DNA of 64,000 bases from a phage. Location: sequence record PX915676.1; one strand, 5' to 3'. The notes below the pieces were generated by a model. The model was given only the letters and a program-made list of their open reading frames with translations, made no database searches and was not told the DNA's origin. Below, in pieces: positions 14,355-27,040 of the stretch. The stretch's first letter is position 1. The number at the start of each line of letters is the position of its first letter. Position numbers and translations under genes: made by a program.

Positions 14355-16145
14355 ATGTCAAAGATCATTTTGGGAGACACAGGTTGTAAGGAATGTATCT
14401 CTCATGGTCGTGATAAAACCCACAACCACATGATTCTCTTCCGTAACGAAGAGACTGGTGAGGAGTGGGGGAGTTGTAACCGTTGTGGGAATTACGAAGT
14501 GTTCGAAAAGGGCACTACACCTACTCCAAACGAGAAGAAAGAGTTATCCCCTGAAGAGTTGAGAGAAGTCTTAGATGATTGCTTAGAGCTTCCTCAGGGT
14601 GAACTTACTCGCCGTTTAATCCCTAAAGCTGTATCAGAGCGGTTTGAGTGTCGTATTGGCCTCAGTCAAACTGATGGTCAGACACCAGACAGTTACTTCT
14701 TTCCTCGTGAACGTGATGGAAACATTGTCGGATACGAGGTTAAGCTGCTAGATAGTAAGAAGTTCTATTACGTCGGCAGTGTGAAAGAAGCAGATTTGTT
14801 CGGTATGGCACAAGCTCAACGTGGAGATGTGTACAACAAGAAGCTGTTCATTTTTGAAGACCCGCTATCCTGTATGTCAGGTTTCCATGTCCTTACAGCT
14901 TTTACAAATGCAACAAATATTAAACCAGCATGTGTTTCTTTACCGTTCGGTGCAGGTTCAATCTCTTCTGTGTTGTCTCGTAACCGAGACTTCGTAAATG
15001 GTTTTGAGGAGGTTGTGCTCTGCATGGACAACGATGATGCAGGTGAGATAGCTTTAACAAAAGGTCGTTCTTTATTCCCTCATGTTAAATTTGCTCGTAT
15101 TCCTAAAGGAACTTTCCCATACAACGGTGTGGAGAAAGAGATTAAGGATGCGAATGACATGCTTCTGTCTGGTCGTGGTCAAGAGTTATTCAACATTCTC
15201 AAGTATTCAGCAAAGCGGGAATCTCCTGCTGGTGCTGTAACAATCTTTGATTGTCTTGATGATGCTCTGAAGAAAGCGGAGTGGGGTATCCCGTATCCGT
15301 GGAAGACTCTGAATGAGATGACCTTCGGTATTCGATGGGGAGAGGTGGTAGCAATTGGTGGTGGAGTAGGGAGTGGTAAAACGCTCATTGCTCACGAGCT
15401 GGTTGCTCATCTGTGCTTAGAGCATGGTTTTAATGGAGGTGGCTTCTTCTTGGAAGAGAAGGTAGGCATGTCTGTTAAGAACATTGCTGGTAAGTCAGCA
15501 TCAATTCCTTTCCACCGACCTGATGTTGAATATGACGAGGAAGATTTGCGTAATGAAGCACTTCGTTATGCAGACAAATTCTTCTTGTATGACAACTTCG
15601 GACAGAATGAATGGGAAGACATTAAACAGTGTATCCGTTTCTGGGTAGTTGAAAACCAGTGTAAGTTCATCATCCTTGATAATATTACCGCTCTGGTATC
15701 TCATTTAACACCTTCAGAGATTAACACTGAAATCAGTAAGATTGCTTCCGAGCTTGCTGGTATGTGTAAAGAATTAGACTTTACCGCTTTCGTGCTATCT
15801 CACCTTAATGCTCCGGCAGGTGGTGCTCCTCATGAAGAAGGTGGGCAGGTACGTGAAGTACAGTTCACTGGCTCTCGTTCTCTTATGCGTTGGTGTCAGT
15901 GTATCATTGGCTTTGAGCGTGATAAGCAAGCTGACGGCTTAGCTAAGAACCTCTCAGTCATTCGATTACTGAAAGAACGTAACTACGGTCAGACAGGTGT
16001 CTGTTATACTAAGTATATCAGCGAAACCGGTAGACTTGTAGAAAGGGAAGACTTTGAAGTTGATGAAGATAATCCATTCGTTTTAACTAACGGAGAGGAT
16101 GCAGCTTCTCTCGTCAACCAAGCAGATGGAGCTTCACCGTGGTAA
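14355..16145 (+). CDS. DNA primase-helicase (T7 gp4-like)
   Basis: N-terminal zinc ribbon CKEC...CNRCG, TOPRIM acidic motif CMDNDDAGE, Walker [10 protein letters not shown], Walker B FIILDN. Confidence 0.85.
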
Positions 16146-16696
16146 AGAAAAAGAAGAAAGTGTTTGCATTCGATATCGAGAGTAATGCACTGTACGATGA
16201 CATAACTAAAGTATGGTGTATTTATATCTTTGATGTTGAAACTGGTGAAAGGTGGGGCTATCGGCCTCACCAAATTGAAGATGGGATTCGTAAACTTACA
16301 GAAGCAGATGTACTAGTGGGTCATAATATTATTGACTTCGACTTACCTGCTCTGAAAAAGATGTATCCCTCTTTGATTAAATATAATTTTAACGTCTTTG
16401 ACACTTTATGTCTTAGTCGATATCTTAAACCTGACCGTATTGGTGACAGTCCTGAGTATCCGAAAGGCGACCCTAGACGTGGCCCAAGAGGTCATGGTTT
16501 GAAGCAATGGGGTGAGTTCTTAGAGGAACTTAAAGGTGACTACGGTGAGCAAGAGGAAGCATGGGATGCTTTCACTGAAGATATGTTTACTTATTGTGAA
16601 CAGGACGTTAACTTAACTGTTAAGGTTTATCTTTTCTTGTGTGAACTCACGGGATTTGACCCTTACGACCCACCTTCATTATATTGGAAAATGTAA
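16139..16696 (+). CDS. 3'-5' exonuclease (family A polymerase proofreading domain, stand-alone)
   Basis: Exo I FDIES, Exo [13 protein letters not shown], Exo III YCEQD; GTG start overlapping helicase stop. Confidence 0.7.
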
Positions 16697-16697
16697 A

Positions 16698-24756: not shown

Positions 24757-25179
24757 ATGCCATTACCAGCTAGACACCAAAACCGTTTCTTAGTTCTCAA
24801 GTGGGATGATATCGAAATGAATCTCACTGAACATGAACTAGATTTGTTCCATGAATTATTATCAGAGATTCGCTCTGGTATTCCTGAACGTCAGTATGTG
24901 GTTATCAGTGATAAACACCCTCAAGAGTTTGAAGAAGCTTGGGGTATGAAGCTGGCCTACATTCAGAGAGCTATTAGAGAAAGAGAAGAAGTTGCTAATC
25001 AGAGGGTTGTGGCTCATCTGGTACGAGAACAGCCTCGTGAAGCCAGAGCTACACATACACCACCTCCGCCCCCTCCTTGGACAGTTGTCAACGGGACAGT
25101 TAGGGCTTATAGTGATGAAGCAACCATGCTGAATGTAGTAGAAGATAACCAAGCATTTACAGATTTACTTTACCAATAA
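24757..25179 (+). CDS. hypothetical protein
   Basis: GGTGGAG SD; 140 aa; proline run PPPPPPW. Confidence 0.45.
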   Translation: MPLPARHQNRFLVLKWDDIEMNLTEHELDLFHELLSEIRSGIPERQYVVISDKHPQEFEEAWGMKLAYIQRAIREREEVANQRVVAHLVREQPREARATHTPPPPPPWTVVNGTVRAYSDEATMLNVVEDNQAFTDLLYQ

Positions 25180-25195
25180 TTTAAAGGAGTATAAA

Positions 25196-27040
25196 GTGAG
25201 CAACCCGGACGCTCTTCCATTTTTGACAGAGATGACTGTCGCTGATATAATCTCTAAGCAAGCAAAGCACGGAGTGAGTTTCAACCGAAGAAATGCTCGG
25301 TGGTATGTTCACCTCCTTAAAGAGATTATTGTTAATATTGACAGAGAGTTGATTCCTCTCTTACCTAAGATGAGATTAGACGGCTCTACTTATATGAAGC
25401 CGTTTAAGAAGTCTGGAGCTTTGCAGAAATGGCCTCAAGCTTATTGTGATAGGGTTGGGCTGAAGAGAGAAGACATTGGCGGAGCTTTCACCTGTGTCGA
25501 ATACGTAGACTTTGACCCATCGAAAGATGCACGAGTTAAAGAAGCTCTTATGGATGAGGGCTTTCTTCCTCCAGAGTTTAACGTATCTAAGAAGCCTTGG
25601 AATACTTTCGAAATTAAGAAAGATATGAGAAAGTATGGAACATACCAAGCATGGTATACTGCTTGGATGCGAGGCAATGCTAAGCAAAAGCAGACAGCCG
25701 AGATGGTTGACGCTGATATTAAGAAGTTCTTAGAAAAGCATTTCAGGTTTAAGACTAAGAATTACATGAAGGCTTACGTATTTGGTTTGGGGTTGAACCC
25801 TAATCGCCGTAATCCTGTAACGTTTGATGAGATTAAGAAAGCGCTAGCCACATCAAACAAGTGGCCTACAGCTCCTACAAATCTCGAGGAGACTCTCGAA
25901 GAAGGGTTAGGAGGTGAGCTAGGGAGTGTCGGAAGTTTGCTTAAGAGACGCGTTGTAGCAGCTCACAGGCTAGGTCTTATCAATGGACTCATAGCAAAGG
26001 AACGCGAAGATGGTAAACTTTCGGCAGAAGCTAACAGCTGCGCTACGCCGACTTTTCGATTCAAACATCGTATCGTGGTTAATATTCCCTCCCGTGGTTT
26101 GTTTGGTCACGAGTGTCGCAGTTTGTTTGAGTCTGACTATAACTCAGACAGTGATCATTCTCGTCCTTTCATTATTACTAACGTTGTTCCTGATGGTTGT
26201 TATATACGAAAAGGTACTAACGTAATTTACGAGAAGGGTAAGCCGGGGAAGAAAGACAAACCTGTAGGTGCTTACAAATATTACATACCCGCTGGTAAAG
26301 AAGTATTCTTAGGGTATGATGGTTCTGGGCTTGAACTTCGCATGCTCGCTCACTACCTCATTAAAGAGTGTAGGGACATGCTTGCTGAAGCAATAGAAGA
26401 GAATAATCCAGCTAAGAAAGCTCTGGCAGAACGTGGTTTAGCTTCTGCTATTATGTATCGTGACATCCTCCTTGAAGGGGATATCCACTCCCACAACCAG
26501 AAACTTGCTGGTCTTCCTACTCGTGACAACGCTAAGACCTTTATCTACGCATTCAACTATGGTGCTGGTGATGCTAAGCTCGGTTCAATTGTAGGTGGTG
26601 GGGCTGACGAAGGTTCAGTGATGCGAGCACGTTTCTTAGCAGAGAACCCATGTATTGCAATCCTCATTGATCGTATGACAGAGAAAGCTGCTCAAGGATA
26701 CTTGATTGGTGTCGATGGTCGTAAGATTACAATGAGACGGGATGCCACTGGTAAGGTTATGGTTCATAAAGCCCTTAACACACTCCTGCAATGTGCTGGT
26801 GCTGTTGTTATGAAATATGCTATGATGTTCCTTAACAAGTGGATTGAGAAAGATAAGGTTCGTTGTGCTAAGGTAATTGATATGCACGATGAAGGTCAAT
26901 TCTCAGTAAACCGTAATGATGTACAGAAACTCAAAGAGCACACTGAGCTTTGTGTTAAGAAAGCTGGCGAGTATCTGAACATGGAATGTCCTCTGGCATC
27001 TGATTGTCAGATTGGACTTAACTGGATGCATACACACTAA
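25196..27040 (+). CDS. DNA polymerase, family A, polymerase domain only
   Basis: Motif A DGSGLELRMLAHY, motif B RDNAKTFIYAFNYGAG, motif C VIDMHDEGQF; AAGGAG SD before GTG; no exonuclease motifs in this ORF. Confidence 0.85.
   Translation: MSNPDALPFLTEMTVADIISKQAKHGVSFNRRNARWYVHLLKEIIVNIDRELIPLLPKMRLDGSTYMKPFKKSGALQKWPQAYCDRVGLKREDIGGAFTCVEYVDFDPSKDARVKEALMDEGFLPPEFNVSKKPWNTFEIKKDMRKYGTYQAWYTAWMRGNAKQKQTAEMVDADIKKFLEKHFRFKTKNYMKAYVFGLGLNPNRRNPVTFDEIKKALATSNKWPTAPTNLEETLEEGLGGELGSVGSLLKRRVVAAHRLGLINGLIAKEREDGKLSAEANSCATPTFRFKHRIVVNIPSRGLFGHECRSLFESDYNSDSDHSRPFIITNVVPDGCYIRKGTNVIYEKGKPGKKDKPVGAYKYYIPAGKEVFLGYDGSGLELRMLAHYLIKECRDMLAEAIEENNPAKKALAERGLASAIMYRDILLEGDIHSHNQKLAGLPTRDNAKTFIYAFNYGAGDAKLGSIVGGGADEGSVMRARFLAENPCIAILIDRMTEKAAQGYLIGVDGRKITMRRDATGKVMVHKALNTLLQCAGAVVMKYAMMFLNKWIEKDKVRCAKVIDMHDEGQFSVNRNDVQKLKEHTELCVKKAGEYLNMECPLASDCQIGLNWMHTH

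Follow-up and report, generated by a model that had tools for sequence, protein, structure and literature searches.

Separate genes for the predicted proofreading exonuclease and the polymerase domain of a T7 gp5-like DNA polymerase in a Kuravirus phage

The division of a family A DNA polymerase into an exonuclease gene and a polymerase gene is already known, has been annotated since 2008 and is common to a large phage group. In the GenBank record of phiEco32, gp74 is entered as 'type I DNA polymerase, contains 3'-5' exonuclease domain' and gp53 as 'DNA polymerase-like protein, lacks 5'-3' and 3'-5' exonuclease domains', and the pair is labelled 'DNA polymerase exonuclease subunit' and 'DNA polymerase' in Bas90, KBNP1711 and other Gordonclarkvirinae. 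The split was noted for LUZ24-like phages in 2012 (PMC3517423) and for all Kuravirus-like phages in 2023 (PMC9965538), the latter paper also reporting that these phages encode a 5'-3' exonuclease separately, and the analogy with thioredoxin in T7 was put forward in print in 2021. As a discovery, the split matters little. A search of the literature found no biochemical study of any enzyme from the phiEco32-like two-gene polymerase clade. The additions of the present analysis are small, namely two insertions confined to polymerases lacking the exonuclease domain and a thioredoxin-binding-like segment common to all polymerase homologues aligned.

The stretch of DNA analysed (64,000 nucleotides, record PX915676.1; hereafter the window) derives from an E. 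coli phage, a Kuravirus of the phiEco32/SU10-like type, with about 97% nucleotide identity to Kuravirus genomes. Its polymerase gene is 97.2% identical in nucleotide sequence to that of phiEco32, and its exonuclease protein is 100% identical to that of Bas90 and 99.5% identical to that of SU10. The two-gene layout of Kuravirus (a primase-helicase gene whose stop is overlapped by the exonuclease gene, about 8.5 kb of cargo, and the polymerase gene) was found in the window as follows.

14355..16145, + strand, T7 gp4-like primase-helicase (Pfam DnaB_C, 9.9e-11; weak Toprim_2 match)
16139..16696, + strand, predicted 3'-5' proofreading exonuclease subunit, DEDDy type (PF01612, T7 gp5 match, AF2/Foldseek, conservation)
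16698..25179, + strand, cargo block of 23 ORFs between the exonuclease and polymerase genes (Pfam; annotation of near-identical phages)
25196..27040, + strand, predicted family A DNA polymerase subunit with thumb, palm and fingers only (PF00476, T7 gp5 match, AF2/Foldseek, conservation)
33599..34441, + strand, putative separate 5'-3' exonuclease (FEN/T7 gp6-like), start codon provisional (weak PF02739 match, 1.4e-5, below the curated cut-off)

The preliminary description of this DNA had placed a 185-aa exonuclease ORF at 16139 and a 614-aa polymerase ORF at 25196, and had reported the exonuclease motifs FDIES, HNIIDFD and YCEQD and the polymerase motifs A, B and C. The coordinates and lengths were right (16139-16696 and 25196-27040, both ORFs starting with GTG), and all of these motifs were found in the two ORFs. 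The exonuclease start (GTG, 16139-16141) lies just before the primase-helicase stop (TAA, 16143-16145), so that the overlap of the two genes, also described earlier, is 7 nt, and a Shine-Dalgarno sequence (GGAG, 16128-16131) is located 7 nt upstream of the GTG. Exo I is FDIES (D12, E14), Exo II is HNIIDFD, whose final D (D68) is the catalytic Asp and aligns with T7 D65, and Exo III is YCEQD (Y152, D156). Within the exonuclease family D12, E14, H62, N63, D68 and D156 were invariant, and Y152 was at least 90% conserved. The protein matched PF01612 in Pfam (E 2e-8, 34.7 bits; curated cut-off 23.6), and its best PDB sequence match was T7 gp5 (E 1e-11), to residues 3-178 of which it is homologous. 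In the AF2 model (pLDDT 92.6), the top 27 Foldseek matches were all T7 gp5 (TM 0.61-0.71), the exonuclease domain of T7 gp5 being matched with TM 0.69-0.71. The DxE, conserved Asp and YxxxD of DEDDy exonucleases were present together with a predicted fold like that of the T7 gp5 exonuclease domain, and dN/dS (0.03-0.09) indicated strong purifying selection. From sequence and model, the 185-aa product is a complete DEDDy proofreading exonuclease domain encoded by an intact gene.

All 65 close homologues of the exonuclease were short (101-247 aa), mostly full-length stand-alone proteins of 163-195 aa, and a polymerase domain was found in none of them. The family nests among the N-terminal exonuclease domains of fused polymerases; among its best 150 representatives, 39 were no longer than 300 aa and 87 exceeded 550 aa. 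The exonucleases of the Kuravirus group have a conserved FDxxNPP C-terminal tail.

The polymerase ORF is preceded by a Shine-Dalgarno sequence (AAGGAG) 6 nt upstream of its GTG, and its product shows homology to T7 gp5 over a stretch that begins near residue 203 and ends at 704. Motif A is DGSGLELR (D375, E380; also R382), motif B is RDNAKTFIYAFNYG (R443, K447, Y451; also Y455 and G456) and motif C is HDE at 564-566 (H564, D565, E566), and the residues of the three motifs were invariant in 87 homologues. PF00476 was matched with E 2.2e-23 and 83 bits (curated cut-off 34), T7 gp5 was the best PDB sequence match (E 1.8e-32), and the AF2 model (pLDDT 92.4, pTM 0.82) gave T7 gp5 as all of its top 27 Foldseek matches (best E 6.5e-26). 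With motifs A, B and C, a predicted T7 gp5-like fold and dN/dS of 0.01-0.06 (strong purifying selection), the 614-aa product is a complete family A polymerase domain, its gene likewise intact. An exonuclease domain is absent from this ORF, and in 80 of the 87 aligned homologues the polymerase domain is preceded by no more than 10 residues, so that these lack one as well; the nearest fused forms were just 43-46% identical. Compared with T7 gp5, the window polymerase has a thumb extended by 98 residues, and motif A is flanked by inserts of 59 residues on its N-terminal side and 33 residues on its C-terminal side. The thumb extension (67-98 aa) and the beta-rich insert before motif A (24-63 aa) were present in 80 of 80 exonuclease-less polymerases and in none of six fused ones.

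Alignment with T7 gp5 and the fused polymerases P0180 and P0182 placed the break in the exonuclease-polymerase linker, after the Exo III helix, and a remnant of this linker is kept in the exonuclease. Because the break falls between domains, nothing is missing or duplicated between the halves; the earlier reading of the two ORFs as halves of one family A polymerase is borne out by this position and by the homology of both to T7 gp5-type enzymes. The split might instead be an artefact or a sign of decay, through an assembly error, a pseudogene, or halves rejoined by an intron, an intein or trans-splicing, and polymerase genes are indeed interrupted in some relatives (KBNP1711 and PKM.Hi.22.6). 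Those interruptions lie inside the polymerase domain near motif B, unlike the break between exonuclease and polymerase. Against an artefact or decay, neither ORF is disrupted and both evolve under purifying selection, the layout is conserved across families, and 59 independent phage records were colinear over at least 80% of the 11 kb region, by which the assembly error considered in the preliminary description was ruled out. Its statement that no simple intron or intein separates the halves also stood, since the two halves have separate ribosome-binding sites and start codons and the 8.5 kb gap encodes 23 ORFs, several with recognised functions. An intron or intein between the halves was rejected: Rfam at the gathering threshold showed only a tRNA in the window, and the break is at a domain boundary. 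The explanation by artefact or decay is effectively refuted.

The 23 intervening ORFs, all on the + strand, were counted by mapping the annotation of near-identical phages onto the window, and the earlier figure of about 20 was a fair one; Bas90 has 24 such genes, SU10 has 23 and phiEco32 has 20 annotated, one small Bas90 gene downstream of thyX being missing from the window. The cargo includes a nucleotidyltransferase, a dCTP deaminase, a Dps/ferritin-like protein, a thioredoxin, ThyX, an Nlig-Ia domain protein, PhoH and small proteins without assigned function. The primase-helicase upstream (dN/dS 0.00-0.04) has homologues labelled 'DNA primase/helicase' in SU10, Bas90, KBNP1711 and phiEco32. 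Two gp36-type promoter elements and two terminator-like hairpins lie between the exonuclease and polymerase genes, the promoter consensus and the gene list having been taken from PMC8948821.

19195..19203, + strand, AAATGTATA, differing at a single position from the gp36-sigma promoter element of phiEco32, in the gap that precedes the homologue of phiEco32 gene 68
20378..20653, + strand, phage thioredoxin, 91 aa, CAPC active site (PF00085, E 2.7e-13)
23319..23327, + strand, exact TAATGTATA, phage-sigma (gp36-type) middle promoter element, intergenic, 1.9 kb upstream of the polymerase gene

Gene 68 is listed among the genes downstream of mapped gp36-dependent promoters of phiEco32 (PMC8948821), and the element at 23319..23327 corresponds to the promoter of phiEco32 gene 58. 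Five exact copies of TAATGTATA occur in the window against 0.83 expected, a number reached in none of 100 shuffles.

The synteny comparison proposed in the preliminary description was carried out, and the layout recurred in other genera. The order helicase, exonuclease, variable cargo, polymerase was kept in Kuravirus, Nieuwekanaalvirus, a Grimontviridae phage, Bruynoghevirus and larger uncultured relatives; the two genes were both present in every GenBank genome inspected, and for six exonuclease/polymerase pairs among the homologues the longest contig of both members has the same length, so that the two genes of each pair may lie on one contig. In Bruynoghevirus PaP4, helicase and exonuclease genes overlapping by 17 nt are followed by 7 genes and then the polymerase gene (gap 1.9 kb), and in Salmonella phage PKM.Hi.22.6 (Grimontviridae) the order is helicase, endonuclease VII, exonuclease, about 6 kb, polymerase. 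In the metagenomic relatives L008 and L009 the helicase and exonuclease genes are adjacent and overlapping, and the gaps to the polymerase gene exceed 10 kb and contain NrdD. The fused relative P0182 has a helicase gene, a ligase-like gene and the fused polymerase gene, and T7 has gp4, three small genes and gp5. The conserved order with differing gap sizes points to an old fission, not to an artefact, an intron or an intein.

The phage probably makes a replicative polymerase of the T7 gp5 type from two genes, with the following history and mechanism. An ancestral gp5 gene lying next to the helicase gene would have been opened at the linker by one old fission, and the gap would then have filled with nucleotide-metabolism and small accessory genes, to between 1.9 kb and more than 10 kb depending on the lineage. 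Translation of the exonuclease would be coupled to that of the primase-helicase by the overlap of stop and start codons and by the internal Shine-Dalgarno sequence. Translation of the polymerase would begin at a strong ribosome-binding site of its own, and its transcripts may also start at the middle promoter at 23319. The two proteins would reassemble non-covalently at the fork, where the exonuclease would edit the primer end made by the polymerase, as fused T7 gp5 does. The ORF at 33599..34441 is predicted to supply the third Pol I-type activity, the 5'-3' exonuclease, from a separate gene as in T7. Counting against a two-gene holoenzyme, the two genes apparently belong to different promoter-proximal units, and their stoichiometry is not obviously matched because promoter elements and hairpins stand between them; the exonuclease is moreover coupled in translation to the helicase and not to the polymerase.

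The same observations would suit an exonuclease that works alone, without stable binding to the polymerase, which would then replicate without a resident proofreader; editing in trans, repair, recombination, processing of primers or ends, and degradation of host DNA would be its conceivable roles. Autonomous DEDD nucleases are common, and the more distant fold matches of the exonuclease model include TREX-type nucleases and diDNases. Its closest relatives by sequence and fold are, however, the proofreading domain of T7-type polymerases and not autonomous nucleases, it accompanies an exonuclease-less polymerase of one clade wherever a genome was inspected, and it retains the linker remnant, so that independent action is considered unlikely. 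Less likely still is that the exonuclease reaches the fork mainly through the primase-helicase, as a helicase-associated editing subunit and not docked on the polymerase as in T7. The helicase stop and the exonuclease start of the neighbouring gene overlap in Kuravirus and KBNP1711 (7 nt in each), in PaP4 (17 nt) and in L008 and L009, but this adjacency needs no functional explanation, since fission of a helicase-adjacent gp5 gene would leave it too. An endonuclease gene separates the two in PKM.Hi.22.6, and a frameshift fusion of helicase and exonuclease is not possible because a TAA at 16088-16090 closes the exonuclease frame and the A-rich run comes after the helicase stop. The two-gene holoenzyme is preferred to both of these readings.

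The thioredoxin gene reported earlier between the two halves was confirmed. Its product is 32% identical to residues 25-108 of E. coli TrxA and lacks about 21 N-terminal TrxA residues (beta1-alpha1). The TrxA residues taken here as mattering for binding to gp5 are those known from T7. The phage protein keeps KYGIRxIP and the equivalent of G92, and has QCAPC in place of TrxA WCGPC and Ser at the equivalent of G74. In the polymerase, residues 53-110 (58 residues, in the thumb) align with T7 283-338 of the thioredoxin-binding domain (T7 262-338), where the place of T7 basic loop B is taken by a K-P-x-K-K patch, and the segment is modelled with a block-mean pLDDT of about 90 (87-93); the first 21 or so residues of the T7 domain are missing. 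A segment of this kind (55-69 aa) was present in 87 of 87 polymerase homologues, those of Bruynoghevirus and the fused polymerases among them. The search for relatives of the phage thioredoxin gave matches only in Kuravirus, 7-11, GAP52 and Privateer-type phages and in a few unrelated phages, and the segment thus also occurs in phages for which no such thioredoxin was detected. Phages without a Kuravirus-type thioredoxin could still use that of the host. By analogy with T7, the phage thioredoxin is a possible processivity factor for the polymerase.

A further proposal is that the replisome was rebuilt after the fission, the insertions of the exonuclease-less polymerases and the FDxxNPP tail of the exonuclease forming a new docking interface, and the truncated CAPC thioredoxin serving as a dedicated processivity factor by binding to the T7-like segment of the thumb. 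It is put forward as speculative and rather improbable; if true, it would give a T7-type replicase of three phage proteins, independent of host TrxA. The two-gene enzyme itself is useful as a case from nature in which the proofreading domain of a replicative family A polymerase forms a polypeptide of its own. Enzymes of this kind could reveal the way in which synthesis and editing are coupled when no covalent bond joins them, and could be a source of T7-like polymerases for biotechnology that are free of exonuclease by nature. The helicase-exonuclease-cargo-polymerase order illustrates a gene opened at a domain linker and then used as an insertion site for accessory genes.

Among known systems, T7 gp5 is the closest homologue of solved structure for both proteins and shares with them the DEDDy exonuclease, motifs A, B and C and the T7-type motif B Tyr (Y451, equivalent to T7 Y526). 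Both phages have an upstream gp4-like primase-helicase and a 5'-3' exonuclease in a separate gene, but T7 gp5 is one polypeptide used with host thioredoxin, whereas the window phage has separate exonuclease and polymerase genes and its own shortened thioredoxin. In the LUZ24-like Bruynoghevirus phages (LUZ24, PaP3, PaP4, tf), 'DNA polymerase part I' and 'part II' are split at the same domain boundary, the exonuclease gene follows and overlaps the primase-helicase gene as in the window, and genes for an amidoligase, a glutamine amidotransferase and a gamma-glutamyl cyclotransferase are likewise shared upstream. Their polymerase is 39-42% identical to the window polymerase over its full length and has a similar insert before motif A, but it is about 70 residues shorter (545 aa) with a shorter thumb extension; the gap holds 7 small genes in 1.9 kb as against 8.5 kb, the exonuclease is without the FDxxNPP tail, and no homologue of the Kuravirus thioredoxin was detected. 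The phiEco32-like phages (phiEco32, SU10, Bas90) have essentially the same exonuclease and polymerase genes as the window, with the same gene order, primase-helicase/exonuclease overlap and thioredoxin, ThyX and PhoH cargo. An insertion carrying an endonuclease interrupts the polymerase gene of KBNP1711 and of some other phages, but the gene is uninterrupted in the window.

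The 11 kb region was matched at 93-97% identity and 94-100% coverage by the 20 best-matching Escherichia podophages (SU10, Bas90, MN03 and DE5 among them), and 59 records covered at least 80% of it. Because of this close match, and because the polymerase gene is 97.2% identical to that of phiEco32, the window is assigned by sequence to a Kuravirus genome (Gordonclarkvirinae). A family A DNA polymerase divided between an exonuclease gene (exo) and a polymerase gene (pol) had been proposed from the preliminary description, and both open reading frames were recovered with the coordinates and lengths reported there.

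16139-16696, + strand: exo, 185 aa; GTG start, GGAG 7 nt upstream; Pfam PF01612, E 2e-8
25196-27040, + strand: pol, 614 aa; GTG start, AAGGAG 6 nt upstream; Pfam PF00476, E 2.2e-23

The remaining elements of that description were likewise found, and its reading of a real split was correct: exo, from its GTG at 16139, shares 7 nt with the primase-helicase ORF (14355-16145), the genes between the halves, estimated at about 20, number 23 ORFs when the SU10 and Bas90 annotation is mapped onto the window, and a thioredoxin ORF identified by Pfam is present among them. Other Pfam assignments were the primase-helicase, dCTP deaminase, a ferritin/Dps-like protein, ThyX, PhoH and an Nlig-Ia domain protein. 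The exo gene lies in the -1 frame relative to the helicase and starts with an A-rich Lys run. A programmed -1 frameshift joining the helicase to exo was ruled out, since a TAA at 16088-16090 closes the exo frame and the A-rich run comes only after the helicase stop.

Three further genes of the window were recorded separately.

16698-18011, + strand: 437-aa nucleotidyltransferase immediately following the stop of exo, matched weakly and below cut-off by the head domain of poly(A) polymerases/CCA-adding enzymes (PF01743, E 0.0023), and with an Arg/Ser/Glu-rich C-terminal half that looks low-complexity
21871-22194, + strand: 107-aa stand-alone protein made up solely of the N-terminal NAD+-binding domain (Ia) of an NAD-dependent DNA ligase (PF22745, E 3.7e-35); its homologue is labeled 'NAD-dependent DNA ligase' in relatives and is far too short for a ligase
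382-457, + strand: lone tRNA-Arg gene, anticodon TCT

By sequence, the best relative of known structure was T7 gp5 for both products, with exo aligned to T7 residues 3-178 (E 1e-11) and pol aligned in colinear pieces to T7 residues 289-704 (E 1.8e-32). Confident AlphaFold models were obtained for exo (pLDDT 92.6, pTM 0.89) and pol (pLDDT 92.4, pTM 0.82), and for either model the top 27 matches of a Foldseek search against the PDB were T7 gp5 chains only. The break point was located by aligning pol with two fused exo-pol relatives (P0180 and P0182) and T7 gp5. The Kuravirus pol starts just past the end of the exo domain of the fused proteins, and the stand-alone exo ends a few residues beyond the Exo III helix; these two ends place the break in the interdomain linker, with nothing lost or duplicated. 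Residues D12, E14, H62, N63, D68 and D156 of exo were invariant and Y152 was at least 90% conserved (38-44 homologues, down to about 32% identity), and the motif A, B and C residues of pol were invariant in 87 homologues. The dN/dS values were 0.03-0.09 for exo (against SU10 and KBNP1711), and 0.01-0.06 for pol and 0.00-0.04 for the helicase (each against SU10, Bas90 and KBNP1711).

All 65 close exo homologues were short (101-247 aa, mostly 163-195 aa) and had no polymerase domain, and nearly all of the 120 best pol homologues were exo-less, including 'DNA polymerase part II' of LUZ24-like Pseudomonas phages. Against 1.84 billion representatives, a stand-alone exo profile gave 5657 relatives, of which the best 150 included 39 proteins of 300 aa or less and 87 of more than 550 aa that were matched at their N-terminus; a tblastn search of the phage collection gave the same picture. 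This mixture of short proteins and N-terminal domains of long ones nests the stand-alone family, as judged from the matches, within the exo domains of T7-like polymerases. Twenty-four 'Vibrio phage' megablast matches were set aside as trivial, being a 100-nt motif B match to the T7-like ICP3 and JSF phages. A synteny comparison, as suggested in the preliminary description, showed that the gene order is conserved across lineages.

Gene order around exo and pol in relatives of the phage
Bruynoghevirus PaP4: helicase and exo overlapping by 17 nt, seven genes (1.9 kb), pol
Salmonella phage PKM.Hi.22.6 (Grimontviridae): helicase, endonuclease VII, exo, about 6 kb, pol
KBNP1711 and phiEco32: layout same as in the window
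Metagenomic contigs L008 and L009 (91-105 kb): exo-pol gap of more than 10 kb, with anaerobic ribonucleotide reductase
Fused relative P0182: helicase, ligase-like gene, fused pol
T7: gp4, three small genes, gp5

The simplest reading is that a helicase-adjacent gp5 gene would have undergone one old fission at the linker, a single event that we infer, and that a block of cargo genes would then have grown in the exo-pol gap. In the uncultured relatives, this gap contains NrdD (anaerobic ribonucleotide reductase) and a radical-SAM activase (L008, 13264-20528; L009, 14668-19002), and that of L008 also contains RtcB; thioredoxin adjoins ThyX in L008, the same as in the window. Genes for an amidoligase, a glutamine amidotransferase-like protein, an ATP-grasp-like protein and a gamma-glutamyl cyclotransferase lie upstream of the helicase (window 4755-14135, + strand), and their order is common to the window, PaP4 (L004) and KBNP1711 (L006). 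Since this order is found in PaP4, the conserved module therefore reaches well beyond the polymerase genes.

The thioredoxin-family product (91 aa) is 32% identical to residues 25-108 of E. coli TrxA, has a CAPC site and is without the first ~21 TrxA residues. A role in polymerase processivity, hinted at in the preliminary description by the analogy with T7, has already been proposed for this phage group (PMC7881722). T7 itself fails on E. coli trxA mutants. Residues 53-110 of pol (58 residues) are homologous to T7 283-338 of the thioredoxin-binding domain, and a segment of this kind was present in 87 of 87 pol homologues, fused or split; being universal in the clade, the segment is uninformative on the thioredoxin hypothesis. 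Outside the Kuravirus, 7-11, GAP52 and Privateer phages, homologues of the thioredoxin were found in just a few unrelated phages. The neighbors of the gene in the window are nucleotide-metabolism genes, and in larger relatives it lies near NrdD, so that a redox role in nucleotide metabolism would be an equally good explanation.

The phage-sigma promoter element of phiEco32 is tAATGTAtA, and gp36-dependent promoters of that phage have been mapped for genes 58 and 68, among others (PMC8948821). Five exact copies (TAATGTATA) were found in the window against 0.83 expected, a number reached in 0 of 100 shuffles.

23319, + strand: in the gap between PhoH and the ORF after it, 1.9 kb before pol
30346, + strand
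30274, - strand, pointing in the opposite direction to 30346
40064, - strand, overlapping a start codon
56919, - strand

Comparison with ORF coordinates placed all five between ORFs. The homologue of phiEco32 gene 68 is preceded by a one-mismatch copy at 19195, and terminator-like hairpins occupy inter-ORF gaps between exo and pol at 20136-20164 and 23986-24011. Consensus searches for sigma-70 promoters and terminators across 13-28 kb gave overall counts not above those of shuffles. Judged by sequence alone, exo is probably co-translated with the helicase, and pol can probably draw on a middle promoter of its own as well. A perfect sigma-70 consensus (TTGACA-17 nt-TATAAT, extended -10 TG, 12/12) was noted early in the pol ORF, at 25223-25251 (+ strand). 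At this site, 23 nt (GAGATGACTGTCGCTGATATAAT) are unchanged in KBNP1711 despite a pol dS of about 1.6, and the KBNP1711 -35 is TTAACG; the site may act as an internal promoter or bind RNA polymerase, or may simply be a by-product of codon constraint.

The pol gene of the window is uninterrupted. In some close relatives it is interrupted near motif B (KBNP1711, 20926-23551; PKM.Hi.22.6 (L005), 20446-22901; OQ540978.1), that of KBNP1711 being broken into pieces of 454 aa and 139 aa with an endonuclease ORF between them. Rfam gave nothing at the gathering threshold for the interrupted KBNP1711 gene, and sub-threshold Intron_gpI matches (48.1 and 34.7 bits; cut-off 50) are suggestive only of a group I intron there, outside the window. 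The same interruption probably explains the pol homologues of about 450 aa (P0079-P0082, Aeromonas phage BUCT695).

In the alignment, a thumb extension of 67-98 aa and a pre-motif A insert of 24-63 aa were present in 80 of 80 exo-less polymerases, whereas the fused polymerases (6/6) had only 7-13 and 7 residues at the respective positions; this correlation with the exo-less state is perfect but phylogenetically confounded. An FDxxNPP tail is conserved at the C-terminus of Kuravirus and 7-11-type exonucleases, and is absent in PaP4; elsewhere it occurred in only 2 of 30 short and 1 of 86 fused homologues. Speculatively, the pol inserts and this tail could mark a new docking interface. Their pattern makes small additions to a split that is already known, since it is stated in the phiEco32 GenBank record, in which gp74 contains the 3′-5′ exonuclease domain and gp53 lacks both exonuclease domains, and in two papers. 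Current annotations call the exo protein 'DNA polymerase exonuclease subunit'. Polymerase and proofreading are separate genes in all LUZ24-group phages and phiEco32 (PMC3517423), and every Kuravirus-like phage shares this split, as do their relatives (PMC9965538).
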